DNA of 64,000 nucleotides from Bacteroidales bacterium UBA5072 (lineage in GTDB: Bacteria > Bacteroidota > Bacteroidia > Bacteroidales > UBA10428), in contig DIAS01000162.1 in the NCBI GenBank assembly GCA_002415855.1, positions 3,647 through 67,646 of the forward strand. Direction: 5' to 3'. The notes under the pieces are model-generated. The model did no database searches, had not been told where the DNA came from, and worked only from the letters and a program-made list of their open reading frames with translations. A program made the translations under genes and the position numbers. Every line of letters begins with the position of its first letter. The first letter of the stretch is position 1. Shown here one piece after another: positions 26,864 through 48,243 of the stretch.

Positions 26864-26873
26864 TTAGTCAAAT
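26864..26873 (+). promoter_or_regulatory. TTAGTCAAAT motif upstream of the Wzy-like gene
   Basis: This is a one-mismatch variant of TTGGTCAAAT. The flanks tgaTTAGTCAAATaa resemble tgaTTGGTCAAATaa at 50903. The G of GTCAAA lies 45 nt upstream of the -7 box at 26912, the same spacing as at 23163/23208. Confidence 0.35.
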
Positions 26874-26911
26874 AATGCAAATTGTCCGGACGGCAATAGG
26901 GATATTTACAT

Positions 26912-26919
26912 TAGTTTTG
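26912..26919 (+). promoter_or_regulatory. candidate -7 box (TAGTTTTG) for the Wzy/Wzx genes
   Basis: It matches TAnnTTTG and ends 76 nt upstream of the ATG at 26996. Confidence 0.4.
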
Positions 26920-26995
26920 TTTCCGGTATAGATCATCAAAAGGAAACTCAGATCTGAAAATAAAAAATCAATCCTTTGTATAACTGCTGATTAAT

Positions 26996-28222: not shown

Positions 28223-28240
28223 TTAATTAGCTTAACCACT

Positions 28241-29674: not shown

Positions 29675-30422
29675 TCAGATAATATGCAGATTGGAAATCA
29701 ATTTCCGTTCTGTGTTCAAAACTGTCGATTCTGAAGCCCTGCTCGCTTATTAACTTCTCAAAGAAGTTCTTTTCGTACCTCACAATCTGACGGGGATAGG
29801 TAAAGGTCATCAGGTAGTTTTCAGGATTCTCTTCCATATCTGGAACATCTTCCTCGACAAAAGAGGTAAGAAACAGCCTTCCGCCGATCTTTAACATCCT
29901 GTTGAAATCCTTCAACAGGATCAGCACTTCTGAATCAATATAATTGGGAATTACGCCAGTAGCATATACCAGATCAAAATAACCAGTCTCGTAAGGAAAT
30001 CTGAAGTTCTCATTCATCTCGATCTTACCATTCGGATTGTACATGACATGTTTCAGATCGAAATAATGAAAATTGTAATTCGGGTTCTCCTTTGCCAGGT
30101 ATTTTTTGCACCAGTCAATATTCCACTGGTTAATGTCGATCCCGATATAATAAATATCAGGTACCTTTTGCACAAGGCCGATAAACGACCTGCCGGTGGT
30201 ACAACCAATTTCAAGAATCCTTGTTTTGTCCGTGACGCCCAACCTTTGGGTGAATTTAATACCTTCCATTACCGTAGACTCATAGAACAGTTTATCACTC
30301 CGGTATGCTTCGCGCAGGTACCTGCTGTCGCGTGGCGGCAGTAAAACACCTTTGTAGATATGATAATTTTTCCTCAGTCTCCGCTTAATTGATCCTGCCA
30401 ATTTTGACCATAGTTCTCTCAT
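29661..30422 (-). CDS. class I SAM-dependent methyltransferase (paralog B)
   Basis: SAM motif I is ILEIGCTTGRS, followed by IGIDIN. It is colinear with paralog A, sharing blocks such as YKG..LPP, FHY.DL, YNPNG, DVPDM.ENPE.Y and TYPRQIVR.EKN.F. Its 3' end overlaps the convergent Wzx-like gene by 14 bp. Confidence 0.7.
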   Translation of the reverse strand: MRELWSKLAGSIKRRLRKNYHIYKGVLLPPRDSRYLREAYRSDKLFYESTVMEGIKFTQRLGVTDKTRILEIGCTTGRSFIGLVQKVPDIYYIGIDINQWNIDWCKKYLAKENPNYNFHYFDLKHVMYNPNGKIEMNENFRFPYETGYFDLVYATGVIPNYIDSEVLILLKDFNRMLKIGGRLFLTSFVEEDVPDMEENPENYLMTFTYPRQIVRYEKNFFEKLISEQGFRIDSFEHRTEIDFQSAYYLTKIS

Positions 30423-30589: not shown

Positions 30590-31480
30590 ATGAAACAAAA
30601 CGTAAAAAATATTGCAGAGCATTATTTCATCGTATTGCTGGGCTTCTTTTCCCTGATATCGCAGTGTGCCCGGAGCGGTGAATTCCTGATCATTGACAAA
30701 GCCATTACATGGGACGAAAATGCCCAAAGTGCTTTCTATATGTTCATGCCCGATGCCACCATGCCTTCCAACTGGATGTACCCGGACGATTATTATAACG
30801 GCATGATATATACCCGTTATGAGATACTGGAAGTAGCCACCCGTATACCCTGTGGAATGCAATTCGGCATATTTCAATGGAAAGATGCCAATCACACGGT
30901 CTGCGGTGAGTTGTGCGAAAACATCAGGTGGCTGGAAAATGGCACCGGTTCGGTAGCCGAAAATGGAAGCAGTCCTTCTACCTGGTGGGAGTCATATGGT
31001 GGTGTCGATTTCTCCAAAATCAGTGATCTTCAGAGTCTGAGCCCTACAATCTGGAGCAAGGATCCAAGATCGCCCATTGCCAGGCCCGGACAGGGAGGCG
31101 ATGATGCAGGTGAAGCCTGGAGATTGCGCTATAACTGGTTCCCGATAACGGTAAGAGTCACTGTTGTGGCTGTTTCCGCAGGTTCTGCCTTCTCAGGCTG
31201 GGATTACTATATTGGAAATACGCCTCCGAATTCCGACGTATTCGAAAAATACTTACTGGTTTATCCTAACCCGGGTTCCGATGGTCTGTTCAACATTCAA
31301 ACGGACATAGAACCTCCATTTACACTGGAAGTCCTGTCAACAGATGGTAAGATACTAAAGAGCACAACAGTACAGGAAACACTGAATCCTGAACTCAGCT
31401 TGCAGGAACTGAACCAGGGGATCTATATCATCAGAGTTTTGGGTAATAACTTCACTGTTGCACGCAAGATCATCCGGTAG
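30590..31480 (+). CDS. T9SS-secreted family member P2 (minimal form: N-domain plus CTD only)
   Basis: The ATG at 30590 lies one codon inside the track's TTG start. A signal peptide is followed by the N-domain GEFLIIDKAITWDENA...MPSNWMYPDDYYNGMIYTRYEI...GIFQW...GELCE...SSPSTWW..GGVDFS...YNWFPITVRVTVVAVSAGSAFSGWDYY. The CTD follows directly: LLVYPNPGSDGLFNIQ...GIYIIRVLGNNFTVARKIIR. Confidence 0.85.
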   Translation: MKQNVKNIAEHYFIVLLGFFSLISQCARSGEFLIIDKAITWDENAQSAFYMFMPDATMPSNWMYPDDYYNGMIYTRYEILEVATRIPCGMQFGIFQWKDANHTVCGELCENIRWLENGTGSVAENGSSPSTWWESYGGVDFSKISDLQSLSPTIWSKDPRSPIARPGQGGDDAGEAWRLRYNWFPITVRVTVVAVSAGSAFSGWDYYIGNTPPNSDVFEKYLLVYPNPGSDGLFNIQTDIEPPFTLEVLSTDGKILKSTTVQETLNPELSLQELNQGIYIIRVLGNNFTVARKIIR

Positions 31481-31628: not shown

Positions 31629-34433
31629 ATGAAAACTCCTTGCAGAAGCTTTACAAAATTCCTGTTGTCCTCCATGGCGGTTCTCCTGTTATGCGTTCCC
31701 CAGGATGTAAACAGCGCCGAGTTTGTTGTTATCAACAGAATAATCTCTTACGATATCAATGCATCCAGTGGATTCTGGTCATTTGGTATGAATGCCAGCA
31801 TGCCGGCAAACTGGGCATCGCCCAATGACTATTACCACGGGACTTTTTACACCCGTTATGAAATACTGAGTGTTCCGACGAATGTTCCATGCGGGATACA
31901 AATGGGTATTTTTCAGTGGCAGGGAGCCCATAATGATTCCTGCGGTGAGTTATGCGAGAGCATACGTGGTCCGCTGGCAGGTGTCGGAGCTGTTGTTACC
32001 AACAGCAGCAGCCCATCAACCTGGTGGCGTACTGAGGGCGGAGTCGATTTTTCCCGAATGAGCTACCTTGAAAGCATGGCCATTGTCCTCTATTCGTGGG
32101 ACACAAGGTATCCGGTAGCCCAGGCGGGACAAGGTGGTGATGCTGGCGGGATAAGCTGGAACCAGCGCTTCAACTGGTTCCCGATCACCCTCAGGGTTAC
32201 GGTTGTTGCTGTATCGTCAGGTTCCACCTTTTCCGGGTGGGACAATTATATACCCAATCCTGCCCTGCAAAAGCCCACTCCTGCATATGGCATTGATTAT
32301 ATCAATGAAACCACGGACAAGGTGGTTCCCGCAACAGATGAATACGCCCTGTTTCCGACAATGTTTGGCCGAGTAAGTGGCAGCGGTCAGAAAATGACCC
32401 TGATTCCCGGACGGGATGCATACTTTCGTACAAAGGCCGGAGACGGTTTACGCCAATCCGAGATCCAGCATTTTGATGTGCCCTGCAGGCCTGCCACTCC
32501 GAAATTTATTATGGATAAGGTCAACTACCGGACAACAACTACTGTGAGCAGTGAATATGAGTATTCTGATTATTCGGATATGTCTGAGGCTGTTACCGGG
32601 AACGGCACCTATGTTTCAATCCCCGCCGGAACAACCAAGTTCTTCAGAAAGAAGGCCACAGTTACTTCCTTTAAATCAGAAATCCAGGCACTGAACGAAT
32701 CATCCAAATCAGCTATACCACATGAACTTCTTGTTTTCAATGGTGTGATTGACTATCCGAATACAACGGATACCAATGGTTTTTACTATTTCTATTATAA
32801 TGCCGACATGCCCAAAGACTGGACAACGCCTGATAATTATTACAACGGAAATTTTTATATGCGTTATGAAATTATCAGCCAGAAAACTTCTACTCCGGTT
32901 GGTATGCAATTTGGATTGTGGCAGCTTCTGCCACCAGAAACAGGAGAATTGCATGAAACCATGTCTGGAATCACAACACTGAATGGCCCCGGCAGCTATG
33001 CAACTGCCGTCAGTAGTCCAAGTTCCTGGTGGAGACTGGATGGAGGATTTGATTATACCAAGATGGATCTCACCTGGCATATGGGTATAAATCCATGGAA
33101 GTTAGATAGCTATAATGGCAACCTTCAAATCAGGCAGGAAAACGCCAGTGTGTGGGCAGAAAGAAATACATACTGGTTTCCCATGAAGGTATATGTCACC
33201 ATTGTGGCGGTTGCTTCAGGATATTCCTTTTCAGGATGGAACAACTACCTGGGTGTGAAATATCCAACCCCGGCATATACCATCAATTATACAACCGAGA
33301 AAACAAGCCAGGTGGTTCCTGCAACCGACGAGTATTCCTATTCGCCAACCATGTCTCCTGCATATCCGGGCACAGGTGCTACGATAGACCTGTTACCGGG
33401 ACAGAATGTTTATTTCCGTACAAAGGCACAGGGAAGATTCCTGACATCAGATATCCAGCGCCTGGTTGTTCCGGAAAGACCAGCGCCGGTGTATACCGTA
33501 AACTACCAGGAGAAAAAGACCAACGAACCTGTTTCGGTGAACGATGAATATTCGACCAGCCCGGACATGACAGGTGCTTACGTGGGTACAGGTTCCACAA
33601 TCACCATTACCCCGGGTACCGATCTTTATTTCAGAACCAAGGCTACAACGTCTTCTTTCCGATCTGCAATCCAGCATCTGGTTGTACCCACCGTACCAGC
33701 GCCGCCGGCTTTTACCATTAATTATGACTTGGGCACCACGAATGAAACAGCCGGGACCAACATTGCCATTTCAAATTATGCAAATTTCTCCGGCCAGATC
33801 TTTGGCACCGGGACGTTTGTGACACTTGTACCCGGACAGGATTTGTACTTTAAACAGGTTGCCACAGGTTCATCTTTTGGCAGTGATGCTTCACACCTGG
33901 TGGTTCCGGCCTGCAACTTCCTCGGCTATTCCGGTGCAGACACCGTTACGTCAAGCAAGTTCACGGTGTATGCTATTCTCACCGATCAATCTCATGTACT
34001 GACCTTGGCCGATATCCAGGTGACCAACGGAACCGCACAGAACCTGCGTACCGGTAATGTGTTCGACATTTACCCGGCATCAAAGGGTTGGGTTACAGTT
34101 GTTATACCGGCGAATTCCATCAGTGAGAACTCCTTTGCCTCCAATGAAGTACGTGCCTATTACAATGTGGTAACAGGAGTAGATGAAATTACGGACATTG
34201 ATTTCGAAGTTTTTCCCAATCCCAGCTTCGACGGCCTGGTACAAATAAGGAACAATCGGCGAAAGGACTACCAGGTATGCGTTTACAATGTGAACGGGAA
34301 CATGACAAAGACTTTTGAAGTAAATGGAGGCGGCGATCAGCTGATCGACATGCGGGCTTACCCGAAGGGGATGTACTTCCTTCAGATAAGCTCGGATAAT
34401 TACACCCGTTTGCACAAGATCATTTTACAATAA
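31629..34433 (+). CDS. T9SS-secreted family member P3: N-domain, 2 modules, second N-domain, 3 modules, Ig-like VTNG domain and CTD
   Basis: There is a signal peptide. N-domain copy 1 runs AEFVVINRIISYD...FSGWDNY and copy 2 runs HELLVFNGVIDYP...FSGWNNY. The modules are of the PTPAYGIDYINETTD..YFRTKA type. The Ig-like block is CNFLGYSGADTVTSSKFTVYAILTDQSHVLTLADIQVTNGTAQNL. The CTD is FEVFPNPSFDGLVQI...GMYFLQISSDNYTRLHKIILQ. Confidence 0.87.
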   Translation: MKTPCRSFTKFLLSSMAVLLLCVPQDVNSAEFVVINRIISYDINASSGFWSFGMNASMPANWASPNDYYHGTFYTRYEILSVPTNVPCGIQMGIFQWQGAHNDSCGELCESIRGPLAGVGAVVTNSSSPSTWWRTEGGVDFSRMSYLESMAIVLYSWDTRYPVAQAGQGGDAGGISWNQRFNWFPITLRVTVVAVSSGSTFSGWDNYIPNPALQKPTPAYGIDYINETTDKVVPATDEYALFPTMFGRVSGSGQKMTLIPGRDAYFRTKAGDGLRQSEIQHFDVPCRPATPKFIMDKVNYRTTTTVSSEYEYSDYSDMSEAVTGNGTYVSIPAGTTKFFRKKATVTSFKSEIQALNESSKSAIPHELLVFNGVIDYPNTTDTNGFYYFYYNADMPKDWTTPDNYYNGNFYMRYEIISQKTSTPVGMQFGLWQLLPPETGELHETMSGITTLNGPGSYATAVSSPSSWWRLDGGFDYTKMDLTWHMGINPWKLDSYNGNLQIRQENASVWAERNTYWFPMKVYVTIVAVASGYSFSGWNNYLGVKYPTPAYTINYTTEKTSQVVPATDEYSYSPTMSPAYPGTGATIDLLPGQNVYFRTKAQGRFLTSDIQRLVVPERPAPVYTVNYQEKKTNEPVSVNDEYSTSPDMTGAYVGTGSTITITPGTDLYFRTKATTSSFRSAIQHLVVPTVPAPPAFTINYDLGTTNETAGTNIAISNYANFSGQIFGTGTFVTLVPGQDLYFKQVATGSSFGSDASHLVVPACNFLGYSGADTVTSSKFTVYAILTDQSHVLTLADIQVTNGTAQNLRTGNVFDIYPASKGWVTVVIPANSISENSFASNEVRAYYNVVTGVDEITDIDFEVFPNPSFDGLVQIRNNRRKDYQVCVYNVNGNMTKTFEVNGGGDQLIDMRAYPKGMYFLQISSDNYTRLHKIILQ

Positions 34434-34538: not shown

Positions 34539-37500
34539 ATGAGAAAACCTGTTTACACATTACAACGGTTAATCCTGATACTTCTGTTGTTGCTGTCGAT
34601 GAGATATTCCCAGGGAAGCGAGTTTGTCCTTATGAACAGGATCATATCCTATGATGTCAATGCTTCGGACGGTTTCTGGCTTGTAATGCCTGATGTCACA
34701 ATGCCCTCAAACTGGTTTACACCCGATAATTATTATTACGGTACAATTTACAGCAGGTATGAGATAATAAGCGCTCCCACCAGTGTGCCCTGTGCCATCG
34801 GCTGGGGATTCTTCCAATACAAAAACCCCCAGCAAACCGAACTCGGTGAGCTGTGTGAGCTGGCGCCAACCCTCGCCGGTACGGGAGCGGTTGCCTACAA
34901 AACGAGCAGTCCCTCCACCTGGTGGAGGACCGACGGAGGGGTGGATTTCTCAAAAATCGCTGATATGCAGAGTATGGGGGTTATCCTTTACTCAAAGAAT
35001 CCGGGTGATGGCAACGGCTGGCCGGTTTGCAGGTCAAACAATGGAGGCGATCCGGGAGGTATTACCTGGAATGAACGATTCAACTGGTTCCCGATGACCA
35101 TACGGGTCACTGTGGTAGCAGTATCCAATGGTTCAACCTTTTCCGGCTGGGACAGGTATGTTATTGATCCTTCGCGCAGGCAGCCTAAAACTGCATACGG
35201 AATTGATTTTATCAACGAAACCACGGACAGGGTAGTTCCTTCCACCGATGAGTTTTCAATATATTCGGGCATGGCCTATGCCGTTTCGGGCACGGGACAA
35301 CGGATGCCCATCACCCCCGGGCAGGATCATAATTTCAGGACAAAGGCCGGATCGGGTCTTCTGGCATCGGAAGTACAGCATTTCCGCGCCCCCGTGAGAC
35401 CCGGAACACCTGCTTTTGTATTGGACAAGGTCAACCACCGGACTACTACCGGGGTTTCAGGTGAGTATGAATATTCCGACAATCCGGATTTTACGGGAGC
35501 CGTTACCGGTACCGGAAGCCAGGTCAATATCCCTGCAGGCACTACGATGTACTTTCGCAAAAAAGCCACTGCCATCGCGTTCCGATCAACCGTACAGGCC
35601 CTGAACGAGTCGTCGGAGCTGCCGATTGCACATGAGCTGCTGCTCATCAACGACACCATTGAGTGGCCAAATGCCACCGATACGAACGGATTTTATTATT
35701 TCTATTACAATGCCGATATGCCGGCCAACTGGATAACACCTGACGATTATCATTACGGGGAGATATTTGCCCGTTACGAGATCATCAGTGAAAAAACCGA
35801 GGAAACCGTGGGTCTCCAGACAGGATTTTGGCAGATGCTTCCCCCGGAGACGGGTGAGTTGCACGAAACCATGTCGCCGATGGCCGTAATGAACGGCACC
35901 GGATCGGTAGTTACTGTGCGCAGCAGCCCCTACCAATGGTGGAAACTTACCAGCGGTTTCGATTATACACAGATGGACCGCACCTGGCACCTGGGTATCA
36001 ATCCCTGGAAGGTTGACCCAACCGATAACAGCAGGCTTCAGATCAGGCAGGAAAATTCATCGGTTTGGGCTGAACGCAATTCCAAATGGTTCCCGATGAA
36101 AGTATATGTTACCATTGTTGCTGTGGCTGCCTACCGGGAATTCTCAGGATGGCAGCATTATGTCAATTACAGCGCCAAAAGGAAAAGAGCCATGCCATCC
36201 ATCGGCATTGACTATATAAACGAGCAAACTAACCTGGTAATCCCTGATTCCGTTGAATATGCGTACGACGCCGGAATGTCGGGAGCAAGGAACGGCAGCG
36301 GGCAGAGACTGGCACTGACCCCTGGCAATGATGTGTATTTCAGAACGAGGGCCGGCATTGGGAATTATGCTTCCGACATCCTCCACCTGGTGGTTCCTGC
36401 AAATCCCCCGGCACCCGCAGTGACAATTAATTATGCAGGCGAGACCACAGCTGTACTTACACCCGGCACGGAATGGTCAGTTAACGCAGATATGTCGGGT
36501 GCCGTATCGGGAACGAATACAGCCATCCAGGTTACACCCGGTACGCACCGCTATTTCAGAAACAAGGCAACCGCCTCTGCCTTCAGGTCGGGTATCCAGG
36601 ATCTTTATATTCCGGTCAGGCCCGCAGCACCTGAAATTTCCATAAATTTTGCCGGCAATAGCACCGCTGTCATTCCATCCACCATGGAATGGGCCTTTAA
36701 CGCTACCATGATTCCGGCAGCCCGTGGACAGGGTATTACCGTACCGGTAACTCCCTCTGTAGATATGTATTTCAGGTCAGTCGCAACAGCCTCCGCATTC
36801 CGTTCAGAGATCCAACACCTTGTTGTTCCAGCCCTTCCCGCAACACCGGCCTATGGCATCAACTTCGTGCAACAAACAACCAACATTCCGGTTTCCGCAA
36901 ATGATGAGTATGCTTTTTCAGCGGATATGTCGGGTGCGGTTGCCGGCAGCAACACAGCGGTTAACGTAACACCGGGAATTGACATGTACTTCAGGCGCAA
37001 AGCCTCGGCAACTGCATTCCGATCGCTCATACAAACATTGGATGTACCTGCAAAACCAGCATCCCCGGCATTTACCATAAATTACACGGACGGTACTACC
37101 AACGAAGCGGCCGGAACGGATATAGCCTTTTCGGGTTATGCGGATATGGCTGGTCAGGTTTTTGGAACCGGAGTACCCGTGACGCTGCAGCCGGGTCACG
37201 ACCTGTACTTCAAACAGGTTGCCGGTTCAACATCCTTTACCAGTGATATTTCATTCCTGGCAGTGCCCTTCTGCAACTTCCTCGGCTATTCGGGCGCGGA
37301 TACCGTTACATCAAGCAAGTTCACGCTCTATGCTATTCTCACCGATCAGTCCCATGTACTGACATTAGCCGATATCCAGGTGACCAACGGAACCGCACAG
37401 AATCTCAGGGCCGGAAATGTATTCGATGTTTATCCTTCGGTTAAAGGTCCGGTATCAGTTGTTATTCCTGCAAACACGATTGCCGATAATACATTTGCCT

Positions 37501-38028: not shown

Positions 38029-40323
38029 ATGAAACCCCAATTTACACTTTACAGAAAATTCCTTTGCATCCTGTTTCTGGGGATTTTCCCGCTGTTCATT
38101 TATAACGTAAAAAGCGCAGAATTTGCGATCATCAACGGCACTTATTATTATCCATCCAGTGCCAATGCCTTTTACTGTCATGCTTCTCCTCCTTACGCCA
38201 ACTATCCATCTACAAACTGGCTTTCGCCCAATGATTTCTGGAACGGCACATTCTATGCCTATTATGAAGTAATCGATATACCTACTAACGAACCTTTCGC
38301 CATGCAGTTGGGAATTTTTCAATATTACCCCAATGCGGCAAACTGGGATTACCAGAATTTCTATGAGACATGTTCGCTGGTTTTTCCTCAGCTTCAGGGA
38401 GCAGGCTCATATGCTGAGGTAAATTGCGGCTCACCGGCCAACTGGTGGCAGCATCCAAACGGGGCAGTGGATTTTACCAGGGTGTATGACTTTGAAAGCG
38501 TTGGTCCGGTAATGTATAGCCGTACAGCCGGTGCCTATGGAATTTTGTACCCGCCGGATGCTGCTGCATGGGCCGTGCGTGCGAATTATTTCCCATGCAC
38601 CATCCGGGTAATCGTGGTTGCGGTTTCTGCCGGATCACAGTTTTCAGGATGGGCCAATTACATCAACGGCGGTGGCGGAGGCGGTGGTTGTACACCTGTG
38701 CAACAGGCCACGCCAACCTATGCAATCAATTTTGCCACTGAAAGAACCAACAAGGTCGTTCCAACTACAGACGAGTATTCTTACAATTCCAACATGTCAG
38801 GTGCAGTAAGCGGCACCGGGTCCACCCTTTTGCTTACGCCCGGTCAGGATGTATATTTCCGTACCAAGGCCAGTGGTGATTGTTATCTGGCTTCCAACAT
38901 TCAGCATCTTGATGTACCCACCCGGCCTGCAGGCACTCCTTCTTATTCTATTGATTATTACAACGAACGAACCAATGAGACTGTGAGTTCCACTGTCGCC
39001 TATTCAACAACTCCCAATTTTACCTCTCCGGTGAGCGGTACCGGTGCAACGGTTAACTTAACACCCGGACAAGACCTGTACTTCTGGGTGAAAGAAACCT
39101 CCAGCACCTTTGCTTCTGACGTTTATCATCTTCCGGTTCCTGCCCGTCAGCAAACACCTGCAATAACGGTTGATTTTAACAACGAGGTCACCTCAGCCGT
39201 TTCATCTGCGCAGGAATGGTCTACCAGCGCTTCCATGACTTCTCCAACCACAGGTACCAATGCCGCATTACCGGTCTCACCCGGTACGAACCTTTATTTC
39301 CGGACAAAGGCGACAGCAAGTGCATTCTTATCTGCTGTGCAAACCCTGAACGTACCTGCCCGTCCCGCAACTCCGACTTACGGAATCGATTATGCAACGG
39401 AAAAAACATCACAGGCTGTTCCTGCAACAGATGATTATTCTGTACATTCCGATATGTCATCCGCCTCAGCCGGAACCGGAGCTGCTATAACACTGACTCC
39501 CGGCACGGACCTGTATTTCAGAACCAGGAACAGTGCCAGTTCCTTCCGGTCAGCAACTCAGCACCTGACAGTTGCCGCACGACCTGCAACACCATCATTC
39601 CATATCGATTATGGCAATGAAACCACCTCAGAAACAGTAGGTGGCACAATTGAGTATGCTGCCACCGCAGATATGACATCACCAGCGTCAGGTACAGGAG
39701 TAAAACTTCCCCTTACACCGGGTGAGGACCTCTATTTCAGGGTAAAATCAACCGGATCATCATTCGCCAGCCAGAATTACCAGCTGGACGTACCGGCACG
39801 ACCAACCCTGGAATACACAGGGGAGGACACCGTAACCTCCGCAACCATTACCATGCATGCCTTACTGGATGCCGGCATGACAGGATTCGACCTCAATGAT
39901 TTGTCGGTTACCAATGGCATCGCCCAGAATTTAAGGGCCGCAAATTATTTCGACGTCATCGGGCAGAACAAGGGTGATGTCACAGTAATCATTCCGGTTA
40001 ATAAATTTGGTGGAGCAAGCTTTGCTTCCAATGAAGTGGTTGTTTATTACAATAAATCAGCTACCGGGATATCGGAAGAAAATGAGGATGGTTTTATTGT
40101 CTATCCCAATCCGAATGGCAGCGGTATCCTGTATATCCGTGCAAGACAGGTTACCCCCTATTCCATTGAAGTTTTTTCAGCTGACGGTAATCTGGTCAAA
40201 ACTGTCCTCATGGACAAGGGAGAAGAACAACCCCTTGACCTGAAGGAACTGACAAAAGGCATATACTTCCTGAAATTTCAAACAAAAGAAAGTCATTCGG
40301 TGGTAAAGGTTGTCCTGAAATAG
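38029..40323 (+). CDS. T9SS-secreted family member P5: N-domain, Gly7 linker, 5 modules, Ig-like VTNG domain and CTD
   Basis: There is a signal peptide. The N-domain runs AEFAIINGTYYYP...FSGWANY and is followed by GGGGGGGC. The modules are ATPTYAINFATERTNK...YFRTKASGDCYLASNIQHL and four relatives. The CTD is FIVYPNPNGSGILYI...GIYFLKFQTKESHSVVKVVLK. Confidence 0.87.
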   Translation: MKPQFTLYRKFLCILFLGIFPLFIYNVKSAEFAIINGTYYYPSSANAFYCHASPPYANYPSTNWLSPNDFWNGTFYAYYEVIDIPTNEPFAMQLGIFQYYPNAANWDYQNFYETCSLVFPQLQGAGSYAEVNCGSPANWWQHPNGAVDFTRVYDFESVGPVMYSRTAGAYGILYPPDAAAWAVRANYFPCTIRVIVVAVSAGSQFSGWANYINGGGGGGGCTPVQQATPTYAINFATERTNKVVPTTDEYSYNSNMSGAVSGTGSTLLLTPGQDVYFRTKASGDCYLASNIQHLDVPTRPAGTPSYSIDYYNERTNETVSSTVAYSTTPNFTSPVSGTGATVNLTPGQDLYFWVKETSSTFASDVYHLPVPARQQTPAITVDFNNEVTSAVSSAQEWSTSASMTSPTTGTNAALPVSPGTNLYFRTKATASAFLSAVQTLNVPARPATPTYGIDYATEKTSQAVPATDDYSVHSDMSSASAGTGAAITLTPGTDLYFRTRNSASSFRSATQHLTVAARPATPSFHIDYGNETTSETVGGTIEYAATADMTSPASGTGVKLPLTPGEDLYFRVKSTGSSFASQNYQLDVPARPTLEYTGEDTVTSATITMHALLDAGMTGFDLNDLSVTNGIAQNLRAANYFDVIGQNKGDVTVIIPVNKFGGASFASNEVVVYYNKSATGISEENEDGFIVYPNPNGSGILYIRARQVTPYSIEVFSADGNLVKTVLMDKGEEQPLDLKELTKGIYFLKFQTKESHSVVKVVLK

Positions 40324-40440: not shown

Positions 40441-43400
40441 ATGAAGACATTGTATGCCCATTGCAGGCTTATCCTTGTTTTTGTCAGTGTCTTATTCATG
40501 TTGTTCTCGCACAAAGCCCTGGGAGGTGAGTTCGTGATCATGAACCAGACCTTCACCTATACAGTAAATGCCAATGCCTTCGCCTGTCATGTTTCTCCAC
40601 CGTTTGACAATTCAATTCCAGCAAACTGGTTATCTCCGGAGAATTACTGGACCGGAAGTATTCATGCCTATTATGAAGTTATCAGCGTTCCCACAAGTGA
40701 ACCCTTCGGGTTTCAGATGGGTATTTTTCAATATATGCCCAGCCAGGCGCAATGGGATGGGGTTAACTTTTATGAAACCTGTTCCTATGCCGTCCCCGAA
40801 CTCCGGGGTGTCGGAGATGTGTTGGAATATAACTACGGCTCCCCCTCAAGCTGGTGGCAACACTGGAATGGCGCTGTCGATTTCTCCAGGGTCTACGATT
40901 TTGAAAGTGTAGGACCAGTCATTTACAGTCTTGTACCAGGAGCCAGTGGTGCCTTGAGCACCACTGCCGGAGGAGGTGATGATGCAGCCTGGGCGATTCG
41001 CTATAACTGGTTTCCCTGTACCATACGGGTTATTATCGTTGCAGTGTCAGCAGGATCACAGTTTTCAGGTTGGGCAAATTATGTTAACGGAGGTCCCTGT
41101 ACACCTGTCGCACAGGCAACTCCATCCTATGCGATTGACTATGCCAATGAAACCACGACCTCGGTTGTTCCGAGCACGGATGAGTATTCCGGCAATGCCG
41201 ACATGTCGGGAGCTGTTAGCGGAACCGGACAAAAGCTGGCCCTTACTCCCGGTCAGACGGTTTATTTCCGGACCAAACAACTGGATGAATGTCACCTTGC
41301 CTCTAACATACAGACGCTTGTTGTGCCCCAGCGGCCATCTGCGCCATCCTTTTCAGTTGATTATATTTATGAAACCACTGTGGAGGCAGTGAGCAGTAAC
41401 GTGGAATATTCCACCAGCCCCGGTATGACTTCCACCTCAACCGGAACTGGAGCGACTGTTGCGCTAACACCCGGTCAGGATATGTACTTCAGGATAAAAG
41501 CAACCGGATCTGCATTTGCCAGTCTGAATTTCGTTCTGGATGTGCCGGAAAGGCCTGCTGCACCGGCCGGATATACCATTGATTTTCTCAACGAAAGAAC
41601 CGTGGAGAACGTGGGTTCCAACATAGCCTATTCTACTTCCCCGGTTTATTTAAATCCCGTAAGTGGTTCGGATATTACGGTGTCCGTAACTCCAGGTCAG
41701 GATCTGTACTTTTGGGTGAAGGGTTCTGCCTCGGTATTCAAATCCGCCACCTACCGGCTGATCGTTCCGGCCCGGCCGGCAGCTCCATCCATTGCCATTA
41801 ACTTCATCACCGAGGTCACCTCGGTCATTTCATCAACCCAGGAATGGTCCACCAGCGCCGTCATGGCATTACCCGTTGCAGGTACCAACTCCGGGGTACC
41901 TGTAACTCCGGGAATTGACCTGTATATCAGGAACCTTGCAACTGTGAATGCATTCAAATCCTCCATACAAACCCTTGATGTTCCTGATCGTCCGGCTGCC
42001 CCGGCATACCAGATCAACTACACTACGGAAAGGACTGTGCAGGTTGTCCCGTCTTCTGATGAATACTCGCTCAATCCCGACATGTCCGCGGCTTCATCGG
42101 GTTCAGGTGTTGCTCTGACCTTGACGCCGGGCACAGATGTTTATTTCCGGACCAAAGCATCTCTGGGTTCTTTCATTTCCGGTATTCAGCACCTGACTGT
42201 TGGCCTTCGGCCTGCATCTCCCGAATTTCAGATCAATTATGTGAATGAAACCACCGCGGAAAACGTAAGCAATACTATTGAATATTCTACTGCAGCGAAT
42301 ATGGCTTCCGCCATGACCGGAACCGGAATTCCTGTGACCCTGACACCCGGACAAGACATGTATTTCAGGGTGAAAGCCTCAGCTACTGCATTTGCCAGTC
42401 TCAATTTCGTTCTGGATGTGCCGGAAAGGCCTGCTGCACCAGCCGGGTATACAGTTGATTTCATCAACGAAACGACGGTGGAAAATGTGAGTACTGCCCT
42501 TGCTTATTCCACATCCCCTGCTTATTTGAATCCTTTAAGCGGAACCGGCAACAAGGTCCCGGTGACACCCGGTCAGGACCTGTATTTCTGGATAAAAGGG
42601 TCAATAGGTGTATTCAATTCTTCCACGTTTCGGCTGGCTGTGCCGAACCGGCCTGCTGCGCCTGCCATAGCCATTAACTTCACCACCGAAGTCACCTCGG
42701 CTATTTCATCAACCCAGGAATGGTCCACCAATCCTTCTATGGTTTCAGCCTTTCCGGGTACCAATACAGGGATACCGGTCACCCCGGGTATGGACCTGTA
42801 TATAAGGAACATGGCCACTGCGGGAACATTCAGATCTTCAGTACAAACCCTTGATGTTCCTGACCGGCCATCGGTCCCGGCCTACCAGATCAATTATGCC
42901 ACGGAAAGGACCTCCCAGCTTATTCCTGCAGCAGATGAATATTCTTATTATTCCGACATGTCCTTTGCTACTTCCGGAACCGGCGTGGCATTGTCCCTTA
43001 TTCCTGGTACGGATGTATATTTCAGAACGAAGGCCTCAATCAACTCCTTCATTTCCGGCATACAGCACCTGACGGTAGGTCTGCGGCCCGCATCTCCGGA
43101 GTTTCATATCAACTATGTCAATGAAACGACGTCGGAAAACATAAACAATACCATTGAATATTCTCCTGCAGCGGATATGGCTTCCGCCCTCACCGGAACC
43201 GGAGTGCCTGTGACGCTGACACCCGGCCAGATCATGTATTTCAGGGTGAAAGCTACCGCATCTTCCTTTGCCAGCCTCAACCATCTATTGAATGTACCAG
43301 CACGACCGGCGGCTCCTCCTGGATACACCATTGATTATATCAATGAAAGAACCATAGAAGAGGTCAACACTGACATAACTTTTTCAACCTCCCCGACATA

Positions 43401-44703
43401 CTCAAACCCGGTGAGCGGTACCGGTTCAAGGGTCACCGTAACGCCAGGTCAGGACCTGTATTTCTGGATAAAAGGTTCAACAGGCGTATTCAACTCTTCC
43501 ACCTTCCGGCTGATTGTGCCGAACCGTCCGGTTGCTCCCGCAGTAACCATTGATTTTACCCGGGAAGTTACCTCGACAATTTCATCAGCCGAGGAATGGT
43601 CAACCAGTCCAACCCTGGCTACGGCGATAACAGGCACCAATACCGGCATACCGGTTACCCCGGGTACCGATCTTTATATCAGGAACCTGGCGACAGCCAA
43701 TGCTTTCAAGTCTTTGACCCAAAATCTGAATGTCCCTGACCGGCCGGCTACCCCGAGCTACCAGATCAATTACGTCACGGAGAAAACGTCAAAAGCCGTT
43801 CCCATAACGGATGAATACTCCAGGTACCCGGATATGTCATCTGCTTCATCGGGAACAGGTATTGCTTTGTCCCTTACGCCAGGTACAGATCTGTTTTTCA
43901 GGACCAAAGCTTCTGCGAGTTCTTTCATTTCTGAAATTCAGTATCTGTCTGTCGGCTTCCGTCCTGCTCCGCCAGCGTTCCAGATCAACTTCGAAAACAT
44001 AACCACCCTTGAAAACGTGAATAACACTATTGAGTATTCTTCCTCATCCGATATGGCATCTGCCACAACAGGCAAGGGCGTTCCTGTCAGCCTGTCACCC
44101 GGTCATGATATGTATTTCAGGATCAAAGCAACCGGATCTGCCTTTGCCAGCCTGAACTTTCCTTTGTTGGTACCGGCTGCTCCAATACTCGTTTATACCG
44201 GGAATGACACCACAACATCCGGAACAATAACCGTGCAGGCAGTATTAGAGGAAACCATGACCGGTTTTGATCTGACGGATTTATCGGTCATCAATGGTAC
44301 CGCACAAAACATCCGGGAAAATAACACATTCGACGTTATTGCCGGGGAAAGGGGCCTCGTCACGGTGAACATTCTCAGCAATGCATTTGGAGGAGCCAGT
44401 TTCCCTTCGAATGCCGTAACGGTATTTTACAACAAGAACGCAACAGGAATTTCCCTTTCTGAAGAAAGTCAGTTTATTGTATATCCAAATCCCAGCCACG
44501 ACGGGATCATACACATTAAGGCCGAAAACGGGCTGCCTTTTACAGTTGAAGTCTACTCGAATGAGGGCGCCTTGGTGAAAATCTGGGACATGAATGGAGG
44601 GAAAGACCAAATCATCAACCTGCAGGCACTGGCTAAGGGAATCTACTTCCTTAAGATCAATGCCCGTGGAAAAACTTTTATAAAAAAGGCAGTACTGGAG
44701 TAA
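40441..44703 (+). CDS. T9SS-secreted family member P6: N-domain, 14 modules, Ig-like domain and CTD
   Basis: There is a signal peptide. The N-domain runs GEFVIMNQTFTYT...FSGWANY. I counted 14 ~73-aa modules by eye. The CTD is FIVYPNPSHDGIIHI...GIYFLKINARGKTFIKKAVLE. Confidence 0.87.
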   Translation: MKTLYAHCRLILVFVSVLFMLFSHKALGGEFVIMNQTFTYTVNANAFACHVSPPFDNSIPANWLSPENYWTGSIHAYYEVISVPTSEPFGFQMGIFQYMPSQAQWDGVNFYETCSYAVPELRGVGDVLEYNYGSPSSWWQHWNGAVDFSRVYDFESVGPVIYSLVPGASGALSTTAGGGDDAAWAIRYNWFPCTIRVIIVAVSAGSQFSGWANYVNGGPCTPVAQATPSYAIDYANETTTSVVPSTDEYSGNADMSGAVSGTGQKLALTPGQTVYFRTKQLDECHLASNIQTLVVPQRPSAPSFSVDYIYETTVEAVSSNVEYSTSPGMTSTSTGTGATVALTPGQDMYFRIKATGSAFASLNFVLDVPERPAAPAGYTIDFLNERTVENVGSNIAYSTSPVYLNPVSGSDITVSVTPGQDLYFWVKGSASVFKSATYRLIVPARPAAPSIAINFITEVTSVISSTQEWSTSAVMALPVAGTNSGVPVTPGIDLYIRNLATVNAFKSSIQTLDVPDRPAAPAYQINYTTERTVQVVPSSDEYSLNPDMSAASSGSGVALTLTPGTDVYFRTKASLGSFISGIQHLTVGLRPASPEFQINYVNETTAENVSNTIEYSTAANMASAMTGTGIPVTLTPGQDMYFRVKASATAFASLNFVLDVPERPAAPAGYTVDFINETTVENVSTALAYSTSPAYLNPLSGTGNKVPVTPGQDLYFWIKGSIGVFNSSTFRLAVPNRPAAPAIAINFTTEVTSAISSTQEWSTNPSMVSAFPGTNTGIPVTPGMDLYIRNMATAGTFRSSVQTLDVPDRPSVPAYQINYATERTSQLIPAADEYSYYSDMSFATSGTGVALSLIPGTDVYFRTKASINSFISGIQHLTVGLRPASPEFHINYVNETTSENINNTIEYSPAADMASALTGTGVPVTLTPGQIMYFRVKATASSFASLNHLLNVPARPAAPPGYTIDYINERTIEEVNTDITFSTSPTYSNPVSGTGSRVTVTPGQDLYFWIKGSTGVFNSSTFRLIVPNRPVAPAVTIDFTREVTSTISSAEEWSTSPTLATAITGTNTGIPVTPGTDLYIRNLATANAFKSLTQNLNVPDRPATPSYQINYVTEKTSKAVPITDEYSRYPDMSSASSGTGIALSLTPGTDLFFRTKASASSFISEIQYLSVGFRPAPPAFQINFENITTLENVNNTIEYSSSSDMASATTGKGVPVSLSPGHDMYFRIKATGSAFASLNFPLLVPAAPILVYTGNDTTTSGTITVQAVLEETMTGFDLTDLSVINGTAQNIRENNTFDVIAGERGLVTVNILSNAFGGASFPSNAVTVFYNKNATGISLSEESQFIVYPNPSHDGIIHIKAENGLPFTVEVYSNEGALVKIWDMNGGKDQIINLQALAKGIYFLKINARGKTFIKKAVLE
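41527..44154 (+). repeat. higher-order coding tandem repeat: 3 copies of an 876-bp unit (4 modules, 292 codons each)
   Basis: AATTTCGTTCTGGATGTGCCGGAAAGGCCTGCTGCACC occurs at 41527 and again at 42403, an offset of exactly 876 bp. The third copy starts at 43279. The four module subtypes recur in the same order in each copy. Confidence 0.85.
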
Positions 44704-44720: not shown

Positions 44721-45731
44721 CTAGCAGCCGGTGATTAACCGGCTGTTCTTCTTGAAAATCAGCTTAAATGGTACAAGAAGCAATATGCTGAATGCAACGA
44801 TCAGCATAAATGAAAAAATCAGGCCCACGCCATTTGAATTAAGAAATCCATCGACTGACAGTTTGACATAAGCATAGGATACCAGGATGATGGTATATTT
44901 ATGGATGAAAAAGATCCCGAAACTGTATTTTGCTACCAGTCCCATGACCGTATCGAGTTTAACCGAGGAAATCTTGTAAAACATAAACAGGCACAAGAAG
45001 GTAAGCGGTAGTTTCTGCAGGTAGCTGAATCGCTCATCCACAAAACAGGCAGCAGTAAGGACAAGTAATGCAACCAGGAGGAGTACCCAGTTTCTGGTGA
45101 GGTAGCTGAAATATCGCTCGGCATAGTGCGAGGTATGCATACCCAGCAAATAAACGGGCAAAAAGTATACAAAGGATTGCAAAGTATTGTCATTCATAGG
45201 CGGTCGATCCACAATCAAGGATATAATTATTAAACCCGGTATAATGGCGTACCACGCAGGATGACGGTCGATATACCGAAGAATTGGTGAGATCAGGTAG
45301 AAAATGCTGATCATGGGAATAAACCAGAACTGCGGCAGGTGTGAGCCGGTAGCATAAAAAAGGATAATTTTTACAAATACTGGTCTACTTTGAAAAGACG
45401 GGGTGTTGATCCAGCTGCTGTCAAGCCATTCTGGCCTGGTCAGCATCAAAAAGATGGCCGGCACCGACATGATAATATAGGGAAGTATCACATTCTTGAA
45501 CTTTTTGCCCAGGTACGATGCGTACGTGTATCTGTCGAGCAGGTACTGGAACAGATAGCCCGAAATGAAGATAAACAGCATGGAGCTGTTTGAAAGCAAT
45601 ATCCTGAGCACATTGAACTCACCGGGACTTGAATCCGCTATTAAATAAATGGTATGTACTGCTACGATCAGCAGCATCGCAAATCCCCTGAAATTGTTAA
45701 TATAATTAAGATAGGACCTTTCTTTCAACAC
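44721..45731 (-). CDS. membrane-bound acyltransferase family 3 (O-acyltransferase)
   Basis: The N-terminus YINNFRGFAMLLIVAVHT and about 10 TM segments are typical of Acyl_transf_3 proteins in glycan loci. Confidence 0.8.
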   Translation of the reverse strand: MLKERSYLNYINNFRGFAMLLIVAVHTIYLIADSSPGEFNVLRILLSNSSMLFIFISGYLFQYLLDRYTYASYLGKKFKNVILPYIIMSVPAIFLMLTRPEWLDSSWINTPSFQSRPVFVKIILFYATGSHLPQFWFIPMISIFYLISPILRYIDRHPAWYAIIPGLIIISLIVDRPPMNDNTLQSFVYFLPVYLLGMHTSHYAERYFSYLTRNWVLLLVALLVLTAACFVDERFSYLQKLPLTFLCLFMFYKISSVKLDTVMGLVAKYSFGIFFIHKYTIILVSYAYVKLSVDGFLNSNGVGLIFSFMLIVAFSILLLVPFKLIFKKNSRLITGC

Positions 45732-45804
45732 TTTAAGAATTTAGGGTTAGAGAATCATAAAATTCATGCAGATCATTGTGCGCTGAAGCGGTGCGTGGTG
45801 CACA

Positions 45805-46725
45805 TTACCTTAAACGATCTCCAAAGCATAACTTATAAATATACCAGTTCATAAAACGGCTGAATAACGGAAGTTTCATCAGAAATCCGGTGAATTTCAT
45901 GTACCCCGGATTTGGATAGGCTGTTGTGATCTCAACATTGGGATACTGATTGACAAAAAATTGTATACCGGTAATCCTCACATATTCGACTGCCAGCCTG
46001 GTCACAATGTTATTCTTAACATTCCTTTCACGAATGAGGCTTAAGCGATATTTATAAACATTGTTGATCATATCATCAATCAGCCTGTTGGTGGACTGAT
46101 TGGGAGATATTCTGTAATAGGCCAGCTCCTGGTCAATGTAAAGCATCAGGGAGTTTTCCGTCAGCCGCCTCCAGAAATCGAGGTCTGCAATAGGATGCAA
46201 GGGCACATTGAAACCATTCAGTTTTAGCCCAAGTTCGCGGTTAAATACAACGCCCGGGAAAGGTGAGAGCTGCCTGAAATAGAAGTACGTAGGCTTTACA
46301 GGAATAAAAACATCCGTGAGGCGGGTCAATTGATTTGCCTCAGGCCATTCCTCCGACCCCACATGATTGTTAACAGCAAACCCGCCAACTTTGCTCTTAA
46401 ACCGGGTCAGGATCTCCCGGGTAAGCTCAACAAACTGGCAATGCAGGTAATCATCGTCATGAAGAATGGTAATCCAGGGCGTTTTAGTAAACCTGATGCA
46501 ATTGTTGAAATTCTCATCCTGGGGTACGGTTTCAGCAGTTTTAATATACGCAATCAATGGACTATTGTAGCTATCAATGATAGCCTTGAACTCATCGTGA
46601 GGAGAATTGTTGTCAACAACCAGAATCTTGCATTTTACGGTTTGATTCAAAGCGCTTTCAATCGCTTTTCTGAAATACTCCGTTCGCTTATAAACAGGCA
46701 AAGCAATCGTTAGGGTATCTACCAT
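45805..46725 (-). CDS. glycosyltransferase family 2
   Basis: LTIALPVYKRTEYFRKAIESALNQT...ILVVDNNSPHD...ILHDDDY shows the GT-A fold and the DxD region. Confidence 0.85.
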   Translation of the reverse strand: MVDTLTIALPVYKRTEYFRKAIESALNQTVKCKILVVDNNSPHDEFKAIIDSYNSPLIAYIKTAETVPQDENFNNCIRFTKTPWITILHDDDYLHCQFVELTREILTRFKSKVGGFAVNNHVGSEEWPEANQLTRLTDVFIPVKPTYFYFRQLSPFPGVVFNRELGLKLNGFNVPLHPIADLDFWRRLTENSLMLYIDQELAYYRISPNQSTNRLIDDMINNVYKYRLSLIRERNVKNNIVTRLAVEYVRITGIQFFVNQYPNVEITTAYPNPGYMKFTGFLMKLPLFSRFMNWYIYKLCFGDRLR

Positions 46726-47145
46726 GGACTTTAATTGTTTAAACCTTCAAAAGTAACTAAAAACAAATTGCCGTGAAAATCGCACCTTTGTTATACCAGC
46801 TAAACCACAATGATTTATGAGCAGTTGAGAACCAAAAATCCTCTGTTTATAACCCGGTGTCAGCATTTTATCAAAATTGGCAATCAACTTAAAAAACACT
46901 ATGAATTATGGCTTTATTGGTGTTGCAGCTTCTTCATGCTATTACGAGATGTCAATTTGAATGGTTACGGTCATGGTGCGTTCACAGCATAGGATTAATT
47001 TTACAGGTGTAATAGCAGGAACAATTTTCAGTTATCCTCGTAAAGGTATTGCATCATTTCGTGCAGGGATACTGGCTGAAATCTGACCGGAAGATGAGCT
47101 TAGCAGATTATCATCCAACTGAATAACCACATTTAATGACTTACC

Positions 47146-48243
47146 ATGGAACCAAAAGTTTTAATTGTTCAACGTTTTTATTACAACTTCAGAGAGGGCT
47201 TTTATGATTACCTGTATGAAAGCAAGGTCAATTTCCGGCTCATTAATTCCACCTGTTCATTGGGCAGGGTCACCGTTCATAAGACGGCCAGGGAGAAGCC
47301 CTATATCAAACAGGTTCCCATGTTTACCTTGGGGCTTAATTATGTCATATTCCCATTTCTCTTTTTCCACATCTGGTTCATAAATCCGGCATGGATCATT
47401 ACCGAAGGGGGACAGAATACGTTCAATAACCTGCAGGTACTGTTATACCATTTCCTGACCCGGAAAAAATACATCATCTGGGACCTGGGGAAAGGGTATG
47501 ATGAATTCCCGGATACCTTTTTGAGGAAGATTTATATGCGTTTTTACAAACTGACGCTCAGAAAAGCATCCTGGATCTATACTTACAACTCTTCGGGTAA
47601 ATTGTATTTTGAATCGCTGGGAATTGACGGCAACAAGGTCCTGGTTTTGAACAATACGGTGGATACGCGGAAAATAAAGCTTTACCGTGAAAAATCAGCC
47701 GGCATGAGACCCGGTGAAACGGATCTTTCAAAGGAGGGGGACAGGATCAACCTGATCTTTGTCGGGGCCCTCCTGCCATCCAAAAATATTGAAGACCTGA
47801 AGCCACTGATGGATTTACTGGGTGAAAAATATTTTCTGATCATGGTTGGTGACGGTGAGCCGGAATACAGGGCACGGTTGCATAAACTTTTTGAGCATAC
47901 CCCGTGCAGGTTCGTCGGTTATAAGAAACTGGATGAAATCGCACCCTACTATAATCTTGCCTCTTTTGCCGTTTTACCCGGTCTTGGGGGATTATCCATT
48001 AACCAGGCCCTGGCGTTTGGATTGCCTGTCATATGCCGGAGCGCAGATGGTGCAGAAAAAGATCTGATCCATGAAAATGAGACAGGTCACATCTATTCAT
48101 CCTTGCAGGATGCAGCAGATTACATCAGGAGTCAAAGTCAGGAAGATTGGGAACGCATGGGGCAATTGTCCCAAAAGCTTATTTATTCTGAGCATAGCCT
48201 GGAATCGATGACTGAGAAATTCCTTTCCAAAATTAAATCCTGA
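47146..48243 (+). CDS. glycosyltransferase, GT4 (GT-B) family
   Basis: The C-terminal half reads LIFVGALLPSKNI...FAVLPGLGGLSINQALAFGLPVICRSADGAEKDLIHENETG, an E(x7)E-type motif region. Confidence 0.8.
   Translation: MEPKVLIVQRFYYNFREGFYDYLYESKVNFRLINSTCSLGRVTVHKTAREKPYIKQVPMFTLGLNYVIFPFLFFHIWFINPAWIITEGGQNTFNNLQVLLYHFLTRKKYIIWDLGKGYDEFPDTFLRKIYMRFYKLTLRKASWIYTYNSSGKLYFESLGIDGNKVLVLNNTVDTRKIKLYREKSAGMRPGETDLSKEGDRINLIFVGALLPSKNIEDLKPLMDLLGEKYFLIMVGDGEPEYRARLHKLFEHTPCRFVGYKKLDEIAPYYNLASFAVLPGLGGLSINQALAFGLPVICRSADGAEKDLIHENETGHIYSSLQDAADYIRSQSQEDWERMGQLSQKLIYSEHSLESMTEKFLSKIKS

Follow-up and report, generated by a model that had tools for sequence, protein, structure and literature searches.

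Gene family and domain layout

The window, a stretch of 64,000 nucleotides from contig DIAS01000162.1 of the Bacteroidales bacterium UBA5072 assembly (GCA_002415855.1), contains six paralogous genes, P1 to P6, five of which carry tandem copies of a repeat unit that we call the YFR module (Table 1). [quoted passage not shown] By eye, the N-terminus of each paralog shows a hydrophobic stretch and then, immediately ahead of a conserved "EF", an A/S-x-(A/S/G) site. A protein identical to P1, P0113, has a precomputed match to PF19408. Between the last module and the sorting domain lies a penultimate domain of ~100 aa, and in 157 of 211 family members an HMM of this domain has its match immediately behind the last module. 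The penultimate domain of P6 has a faint match to Big_12.

Table 1. Features of the six paralogs; positions are those of the window.
Feature	Position	Strand	Description	Basis
P1 gene	20773..23160	-	head, PKD_6-like domain, 4 modules (21304-22185), penultimate domain, sorting domain; likely start at the MKKILF methionine near 23049	
P2 gene	30587..31480	+	297 aa; head joined straight to T9SS sorting domain	
P3 gene	31629..34433	+	934 aa; head, 2 modules (32262-32702), second head (32703-33254), 3 modules (33255-33908), penultimate domain, sorting domain	ORF, Pfam, module HMM
P4 gene	34539..37793	+	1084 aa; head, 2 modules (35175-35612), second head (35613-36179), 5 modules (36180-37268), penultimate domain, sorting domain	ORF, Pfam, module HMM
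P5 gene	38029..40323	+	764 aa; putative signal peptide, jelly-roll head, Gly-rich linker, 5 modules, penultimate domain, T9SS type A sorting domain	ORF list
P5 N-terminal head	38116..38673	+	predicted jelly-roll beta sandwich, aa 30-215	AF2 model
P5 module 1	38698..38919	+	type B, "SGDCYLASN" subtype	HMM, clustering
P5 module 2	38920..39141	+	"YFWVKE" subtype	HMM, clustering; in three-module AF2 model
P5 module 3	39142..39357	+	"EWST" subtype	HMM, clustering; in three-module AF2 model
P5 module 4	39358..39576	+	clusters with P6.5, P6.9, P6.13	clustering; in three-module AF2 model
P5 module 5	39577..39795	+	nearest relative P6.10 (0.62 identity), of P6.2/6/10/14 type	
P5 penultimate domain	39796..40098	+	~100 aa, last module to sorting domain	HMM of domain
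P5 sorting domain	40099..40320	+	T9SS type A, C-terminal	PF18962 and TIGR04183 above cut-offs
P6 gene	40441..44703	+	1420 aa	ORF list, Pfam, NCBIfam
P6 array	41107..44175	+	14 modules: B, one module, three 876-bp blocks (41548-42423, 42424-43299, 43300-44175)	

A repeat family outside the current domain libraries

An HMM built from the five P5 modules was used to count modules in the paralogs. It found 35 of them in five proteins (four in P1, five in P3, seven in P4, five in P5 and 14 in P6) with domain E-values of 1e-17 to 1e-40 per module, and none in P2. These are exactly the numbers counted by eye in the preliminary description, which had placed the P5 array at 38689–39801, where the HMM gives 38698–39795. 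Its consensus likewise agrees with that derived from a MAFFT alignment, xRPAxPxYxINYxxExTxxxVxxTxEYSxxxxMxxAxxGTGxxxxLTPGxDxYFRxKATxxxFxSxxQxLxVP. At the invariant or near-invariant positions stand T, S, G, P, Y, F and L, a set in keeping with a role in structure and not in catalysis.

No described repeat family was found to match the module. There was no module match above the curated cut-offs in Pfam or NCBIfam, no genuine match of the module profile among PDB sequences, and no family covering the modules in the precomputed matches of 120 homologs to a newer Pfam release. The sub-threshold matches to TOBE and OspG_kinase, together with ATP_sub_h, were treated as noise, since a re-scan showed short fragments with zero or one weak matched stretch; Zona_pellucida and DnaJ_C, present only as precomputed listings on single homologs, were dismissed likewise. 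A Kelch or beta-propeller identity was suggested by designed "SAKe" Kelch proteins in the PDB, which reach E 2.5e-18 with the module profile. This is an artefact: the design has perfect six-fold symmetry, so that the one 23-residue match in the alignment, of 10.4 bits (i-Evalue 6.1), is counted six times over. The YFR unit is a real repeat of ~73 residues that had not been catalogued before: the sequence family is new, the kind of building block familiar.

The family is rare, with 407 members among 1.84 billion representative proteins, and a search for related loci with a five-sequence alignment found four genome loci only, all in Bacteroidales MAGs. Its members appear to be cell-surface proteins of uncultured Bacteroidales. 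They carry 2 to 34 modules, and the array always lies between a head and a tail of ~170–190 aa that includes the sorting domain. Modules also occur behind unrelated heads, namely Peptidase_C25, FG-GAP and beta-helix domains. We do not claim a fixed cassette of modules, penultimate domain and sorting domain: the tail of ~170–190 aa is general, but the penultimate-domain HMM matches only 3 of 39 proteins with other heads.

Predicted fold of the module and the head

The AF2 model of P5 modules 2–4 is all-beta, with pLDDT 96.5, pTM 0.84 and about seven short strands per module. Among Foldseek matches to this three-module model, the best were successive Ig-like stem domains of GhpA, the grappling hook protein of Aureispira sp. 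CCB-QB1 (PDB 9g8b, 9flx, 9flw, 9flu and 9fls), at E 1e-5 to 7e-4 and probability 1.0, with query-normalised TM-scores of 0.37–0.43 and 13–18% identity in the structural alignment. They were followed by triple arrays of fibronectin type III (Fn3) domains (E 4e-5 to 1e-3). Each module is thus predicted to be a compact seven-strand Ig/Fn3-like beta sandwich, in line with the earlier guess that a fragment of two or three modules would fold into Ig-like or beta-sandwich beads. A rod-like geometry and some stiffness are suggested by the pTM and by the matches to extended arrays, with global TM-scores of only 0.4. The P5 head (aa 30–215) is modelled as a jelly-roll with pLDDT 92.0 and pTM 0.88. Its comparison with PDB folds yielded no significant relative; the best match had E 0.014, and the weak matches to capsid jelly-rolls and to CBM30, CBM11 and CBM16 all had E > 0.01.

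Module subtypes and their order

Four subtypes had been named by eye, and clustering recovered all of them as clades with bootstrap support: the SGDC type (P1.1, P5.1 and P6.1; 0.80), the YFW type (P1.2 with P5.2, 0.93; the three P6 copies, 0.99), the EWST type (P5.3, P6.4, P6.8 and P6.12; 0.73) and the YFKQVA type (P3.5 and P4.7; 1.00). P1 and P5 do both open with a module of the SGDC type and continue with one of the YFW type. The preliminary description had set its subtypes against recent tandem duplication, and they turn out to be real and old. When all 35 modules are compared, every non-P6 module has its nearest relative in a different protein, so that the subtypes predate the paralogs. 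Recent tandem duplication is further opposed by Tandem Repeats Finder, which reported nothing over 20000–45000, by the identity of adjacent modules, ~40–45%, and by the P6 blocks, which share only 70–75% DNA identity. Nor are the subtypes an artefact of ragged module edges, since types B and D still separate when core columns only are used.

Type B, which is the SGDCYLASN subtype, and type D are distinguished by their surroundings as well. Across ~120 homologs, 145 of the 150 modules behind a head domain are of type B, where 2000 shuffles gave a mean of 40 and a maximum of 58, and 43 of the 43 modules ahead of an internal head domain are of type D; this rule persists when clustering is restricted to core columns. 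Type F terminates arrays of the P3/P4 type. Among independent representatives, the array starts with B in 38 of 38 proteins with the head domain versus 6 of 40 with other heads, and B is therefore no generic N-terminal cap for any array. Two cysteines of the first P5 module, C221 and C285, lie 64 residues apart, and a Cys pair of this spacing is present in about a quarter of the B modules (41 of 168) versus 7 of 641 other modules. The D modules, for their part, have a C-terminal end distinct from that of the other types.

Inside the arrays, duplication of several modules at a time is evident. Head, B and D behave as a duplicating unit, as seen in the architectures BDB and BDBDBD. The array of P6 consists of B, one module and a four-module block present three times; modules at offsets of four or eight are 55–79% identical, versus 29–53% at other offsets, and the blocks share 67–74% protein identity among themselves. 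P5 modules 2–5 are collinear with each P6 block at 57% identity. Adjoining modules are ~40–45% identical to each other, and neighbours at least 60% identical make up 3.9% of pairs versus ~7% at offsets 2–4, a weak depletion.

The conserved order had been read both as a sign of position-specific roles and as an argument against a generic spacer. The former reading holds at the domain junctions, where B, D and F keep their places. The latter does not, because the interior order is explained by common descent with multi-module block duplication, and because the same modules stand between unrelated heads and the sorting domain, as is expected of a generic stalk element. Subtype order is in part tied to position, and the order within arrays stems mostly from old multi-module block duplications. 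It probably has two causes. One is junction modules, with B accompanying the head, D preceding a second head, and F or C preceding the penultimate domain; the other is inheritance, as whole genes and multi-module blocks were duplicated, and block duplication also keeps the identity of neighbouring beads as low as it is. Interior subtypes such as EWST are more conserved across species than a passive spacer strictly needs. The head and the B module of P1-type proteins are set apart by a PKD_6 domain, which means that the link between B and head may reflect co-inheritance rather than physical packing.

A stalk model and its alternatives

We consider it probable that the YFR arrays are stalks that hold a head away from the outer membrane in T9SS type A cargo. 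Such a protein would be exported by Sec via its putative N-terminal signal peptide and would cross the outer membrane through the T9SS via its type A C-terminal sorting domain. In Porphyromonas cargo, PorU is known to cleave off the sorting domain, and the cargo is attached to A-LPS (PMC8545088, PMC4804311); by analogy, the sorting domain would then be removed here too and the new C-terminus bound to anionic LPS. The C-terminus would thus be cell-proximal, with the N-terminal jelly-roll head, possibly glycan-binding, outermost. The modules, joined head to tail by short Pro-rich linkers (VP-x-RP-A-x-P), may form an extended, fairly stiff stalk whose length would be set by module number: 0, 4, 5, 2+3, 2+5 and 14 in the six paralogs. 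At roughly 3.5–4 nm per bead, the stalks would span ~0 to 50 nm.

Within such a stalk, the order of subtypes could be purely historical, the beads being interchangeable spacers whose order was inherited from ancestral head-B-D and four-module units with no positional constraint. We regard this account as rather unlikely. The duplication of head-B-D as a unit, the collinearity of the P6 blocks with P5 and the PKD_6 domain that separates head and B in P1-type proteins all speak for it, as do arrays behind other heads, which open with A or C types and so show that an array needs no B cap. It is harder to reconcile with the placement of B and D, very strict for a neutral trait among proteins that share only 30–70% identity, with the Cys pair concentrated in B modules, which suggests a specific structural feature, and with the distinct C-terminal end of D. 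Another possibility is that the modules are themselves binding units of an adhesin or lectin array, each subtype having its own ligand, so that the order would create a multivalent surface for binding in place of a stalk. In other bacterial adhesins, Ig-like repeats do bind ligands, and the interior subtypes (YFW, EWST and others) are kept between paralogs and between MAGs. On the other hand, the conserved positions are of the core type, the same modules occur behind enzymes and other heads and adjoining the anchor, and no carbohydrate-binding module family was matched in Pfam or among PDB sequences, which renders this reading improbable.

The arrays might also associate laterally as a fibre of several strands, similar to the heptameric stem of GhpA, with the subtypes setting the lateral register. 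The closest structural matches are fragments of just that stem, GhpA is likewise a T9SS substrate built of Ig-like repeats, and a pTM of 0.84 suggests a fixed inter-domain geometry. Nevertheless, the arrays are short (4–14 beads), no GhpA chain was among the matches of the module profile to PDB sequences up to E = 10, and the PorP/PorE families had no match among the 23 window ORFs scanned, with 17 other ORFs of at least 150 aa left out, so that such a fibre seems to us very unlikely. More speculative still, and slightly less credible, is the idea that the ordered subtypes constitute an assembly code: type-specific lateral contacts at a given height would let the six paralogs, with heads at 0, 4, 5, 7 and 14 beads, co-assemble into a layered, register-defined coat or multi-stranded fibre, for which the polysaccharide genes next door would supply the anchor. 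If true, the GhpA grappling hook would have a short relative made from several gene products.

The data show the repeat, its subtypes, the rule of their order, the predicted fold and the T9SS signal; surface anchoring, stiffness, the setting of height and glycan binding by the head are inferred. Whatever the function of the stalk, a high-confidence Ig-like repeat family missed by current domain libraries is now defined, which would allow the annotation of ~400 large "hypothetical" T9SS surface proteins from Bacteroidales of sediments and wetlands. The domain grammar is simple and testable (head-B, D-head, block duplication), and a paralog set in which one kind of head sits on stalks that range from 0 to 14 beads offers a natural system for studying how stalk length and junction modules affect display.

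Comparison with known systems

GhpA and the window proteins are both Bacteroidota T9SS substrates in which successive small Ig-like domains carry a functional distal part. In the published description (10.1101/2024.01.29.577165), the stem of GhpA has 52 Ig-like repeats, behind which comes a T9SS sorting domain. GhpA, however, measures 5,898 aa, forms a heptamer and is thought to be anchored via PorP/PorE homologues, whereas the window proteins combine far fewer repeats with a type A sorting domain. SprB and the giant repeat adhesins of gliding Bacteroidota are also T9SS surface substrates made of many Ig-like repeats, but the window proteins are much shorter and have type A, not type B, sorting domains; in the Pfam scan, the modules matched neither SprB-type nor other Ig-like repeat families.

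With the Fn3 arrays of fibronectin, contactins and titin (PF00041), the modules share beta-sandwich beads in extended tandem, a likeness at the fold level only. By eye, the module stretch "PG-x-x-Y-F-R-x-KA" resembles the E-F loop and F strand of Fn3, although the module has 73 aa versus ~90 for Fn3. The fn3 profile had no match at E <= 1 in the five paralogs P2–P6, and hhalign of the module against 20 by-eye Fn3-like repeats of a neighbouring 2167-aa protein gave a probability of 0.2.

Gingipain-like T9SS type A cargo has the same overall plan of an N-terminal functional domain, one or more Ig-like domains and a Por_Secre_tail, preceded by a signal peptide that in the window proteins is putative. 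Here the Ig-like part has grown into a long array whose family is uncatalogued and whose subtypes are ordered, and anchoring to A-LPS is presumed. YFR modules also occur in a Peptidase_C25 protein. The family leaves the present view of T9SS cargo and Ig-like stalks unchanged.

Six paralogs and their module arrays

The five P5 modules were turned into an HMM to search six paralogous secreted proteins (P1–P6) for the 'YFR' module, a repeat of ~73 aa. The module was found 4, 0, 5, 7, 5 and 14 times in P1–P6, respectively, with domain E-values of 1e-17 to 1e-40. This confirms the preliminary description, in which 35 modules in five proteins had been counted by eye; its consensus agrees with that obtained by MAFFT, and the P5 array lies essentially where it had been placed. 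All six paralogs possess a hydrophobic signal-like N-terminus (read by eye), followed by a conserved N-terminal domain of ~185 aa (the head), and end in a type IX secretion system (T9SS) type A sorting domain scoring above the curated cut-offs. Eight head copies are present in the window, because P3 and P4 have two each. A conserved penultimate domain of ~100 aa, which separates the last module from the sorting domain, recurs in 157 of 211 family members, and P1 carries a PKD_6 domain between head and modules. Six glycines (GGGGGG, aa 215-220) link the head of P5 to its first module, and 'NGGP' occupies the equivalent position in P6. The architecture strings combine head positions, [N], with module cluster labels A–F.

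Table. Positions of genes, domains and sites in the window
Feature	Position (nt)	Strand	Remarks
P1 gene	20773-23160	minus	[N]BCDA
P2 gene	30587-31480		[N] only
P3 gene	31629-34433		[N]BD[N]BAF
P4 gene	34539-37793		[N]BD[N]BAAAF
P5 gene	38029-40323		[N]BCAAC
P6 gene	40441-44703		[N]BCCAACCAACCAAC
Head, P5	38116-38673
Head, further copies	40522-41085, 30677-31252, 31713-32261, 32703-33254, 34617-35174, 35613-36179
Head, further copy	about 22450-22989	minus
P5 glycine linker	38671-38688
P5 module array	38698-39795
P5 C221, C285	38689-38691, 38881-38883		bracket first (type B) module
P6 C220/C284; P1 C323/C387			equivalent to P5 pair
2167-aa T9SS-type protein	5786-12289	minus
Polysaccharide-biosynthesis genes	15565-30422, 44721-48243
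Wzx-like flippase	28241-29674
Acyl_transf_3 acyltransferase	44721-45731
408-aa ORF	26996-28222		in polysaccharide locus
389-aa ORF	17175-18344		in polysaccharide locus
Two other T9SS type A cargo genes	24657-26804, 50997-53966

The head domain

The AF2 model of the head (pLDDT 92, pTM 0.88) is a jelly-roll sandwich. It has no significant relative in the PDB, the best matches being viral capsid jelly rolls, CBM30, CBM11 and CBM16 (E 0.014-0.14, TM-scores 0.3-0.4), and no Pfam or NCBIfam match was found for the domain. The head may represent an undescribed carbohydrate-binding-like domain family; that it binds glycan is a guess.

Subtypes and their order

Each of the four subtypes named by eye (SGDCYLASN, YFW, EWST and YFKQVA) was recovered by clustering of the window modules, with bootstrap clade support of 0.73-1.00. 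All 21 modules outside P6 have their nearest relative in another protein, as in the pairs P1.1–P5.1 (the first modules of P1 and P5; identity 0.80) and P3.5–P4.7 (0.67). The subtypes are therefore older than the paralogs, and the outcome that would have refuted the preliminary description, an absence of structure beyond recent tandem duplication, was not observed.

Order was analyzed on 836 clustered modules from 125 proteins, in combination with head positions. Type B, which includes the SGDCYLASN subtype, accounts for 145 of 150 modules directly after a head, as against a mean of 40 and a maximum of 58 in 2000 shuffles, while all 43 modules ahead of an internal head are type D, and in two-head proteins the last position is taken by type F more often than by any other type (19/42). 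The B and D clusters persist when core columns only are used. One explanation of these figures is that type B is a general array cap. Among 114 further representatives, the first module is B in 38 of 38 proteins with this head domain vs just 6 of 40 with other heads, which rules out a general cap and shows type B to be linked to this head domain in particular. A Cys pair with 64-residue spacing occurs in 41/168 B modules (the SGDCYLASN subclass) vs 7/641 other modules; the two residues are probably joined as a disulfide staple where head and stalk meet.

P6 is a higher-order repeat, in which identity is 55-79% at offsets of four or eight modules vs 29-53% at other offsets; its three 876-bp blocks share 67-74% identity in protein and 70-75% in DNA, and each of them is collinear with P5 modules 2-5 (57% identity). 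No DNA-level tandem repeats were found by Tandem Repeats Finder, and the block duplications are old. The module strings contain repeating units, for example (CCAA)n, (ECC)n and head-B-D, and high identity between adjacent modules is just mildly depleted. Interior order looks inherited, and its conservation is explained by descent together with block duplication. The earlier interpretation, that conserved order signifies position-specific roles and not a generic spacer, holds in part. The subtypes and their order are genuine, and modules at the junctions are specific to their position, but the conserved interior order has the explanation just given; the module itself acts as a reusable stalk element.

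The family beyond the window

A search with P5 returned 154 homologs. Their annotations read 'hypothetical' or 'T9SS type A sorting domain-containing' throughout, and metagenomes and Bacteroidales MAGs are their only sources; the window is also matched by a 130-kb JGI contig and GCA_002380925.1. An exhaustive search of 1.84 billion representative proteins with the module profile gave just 407 at E <= 1e-3 and 269 at E <= 1e-10. The genome loci retrieved are all Bacteroidales MAGs, some with tandem paralogs as in the window. Between 2 and 34 module copies occur per protein, and the modules also follow unrelated heads, namely Peptidase_C25 with GEVED, FG-GAP repeats and beta-helix. In several distant members (P0139, P0152, P0192, P0214, P0212, P0232), inserts of ~150-161 aa lie between single modules that are frequently of type B, as in P0139 with its pattern B-(161)-B-(161)-B and so on. 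These inserts may represent head-like domains too divergent for the head HMM.

Proposed function and neighbouring genes

In nearly all full-length members, the modules are followed directly by a tail of ~170-190 aa, of which the sorting domain is part. In Porphyromonas, T9SS type A cargo is cleaved and its new C-terminus attached to anionic LPS (PMC8545088, PMC4804311). By analogy, this anchoring and the placement of the modules make a surface stalk, which would set the distance of the head from the outer membrane, the best-supported mechanism. The six paralogs, presumably anchored at the surface, would display the same kind of head, with a putative function, at the end of presumably stiff stalks that are 0 to 14 beads long.

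Polysaccharide-biosynthesis genes surround the paralog cluster, and include GT4, GT2 and GT1 glycosyltransferases, two methyltransferases and an epimerase/dehydratase-like gene; a connection with the glycan anchor or with surface-protein glycosylation is possible. The 408-aa ORF of this locus has no Pfam or NCBIfam match, and the 389-aa ORF no match in the NCBIfam scan. Two further genes for T9SS type A cargo, different in kind from the paralogs, encode a He_PIG x4 and Laminin_G_3 protein and a 989-aa protein whose sole recognised part is the sorting domain. The N-terminal domain of the 2167-aa protein looks like an SGNH/GDSL-type hydrolase; behind it come ~20 tandem repeats of ~91 aa, Fn3-like by eye.

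Module fold and comparison with known repeats

No Pfam match was found for the module in P2–P6, nor any NCBIfam match in the six paralogs, and by sequence comparison it is unrelated to the Fn3-like repeats, 20 in number, of the 2167-aa protein nearby (hhalign probability just 0.2). From a 45-row alignment of module triples, AlphaFold2 modelled P5 modules 2-4 as an all-beta structure (pLDDT 96.5, pTM 0.84) in which each module has about seven short strands. A match to a designed Kelch protein was rejected as a repeat artefact. No sequence link to a known family emerged: the module forms a new family by sequence, and its fold is a familiar one. No chain of GhpA, the Aureispira grappling-hook protein, was among the PDB sequence matches; in Foldseek searches of the PDB with the three-module model, GhpA stem fragments rank at the top (E 1e-5, probability 1.0, identity 13-18%), ahead of Fn3 triple arrays. 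The best structural likeness of the predicted model is therefore to the stem of another T9SS substrate, which consists of 52 Ig-like repeats (10.1101/2024.01.29.577165).
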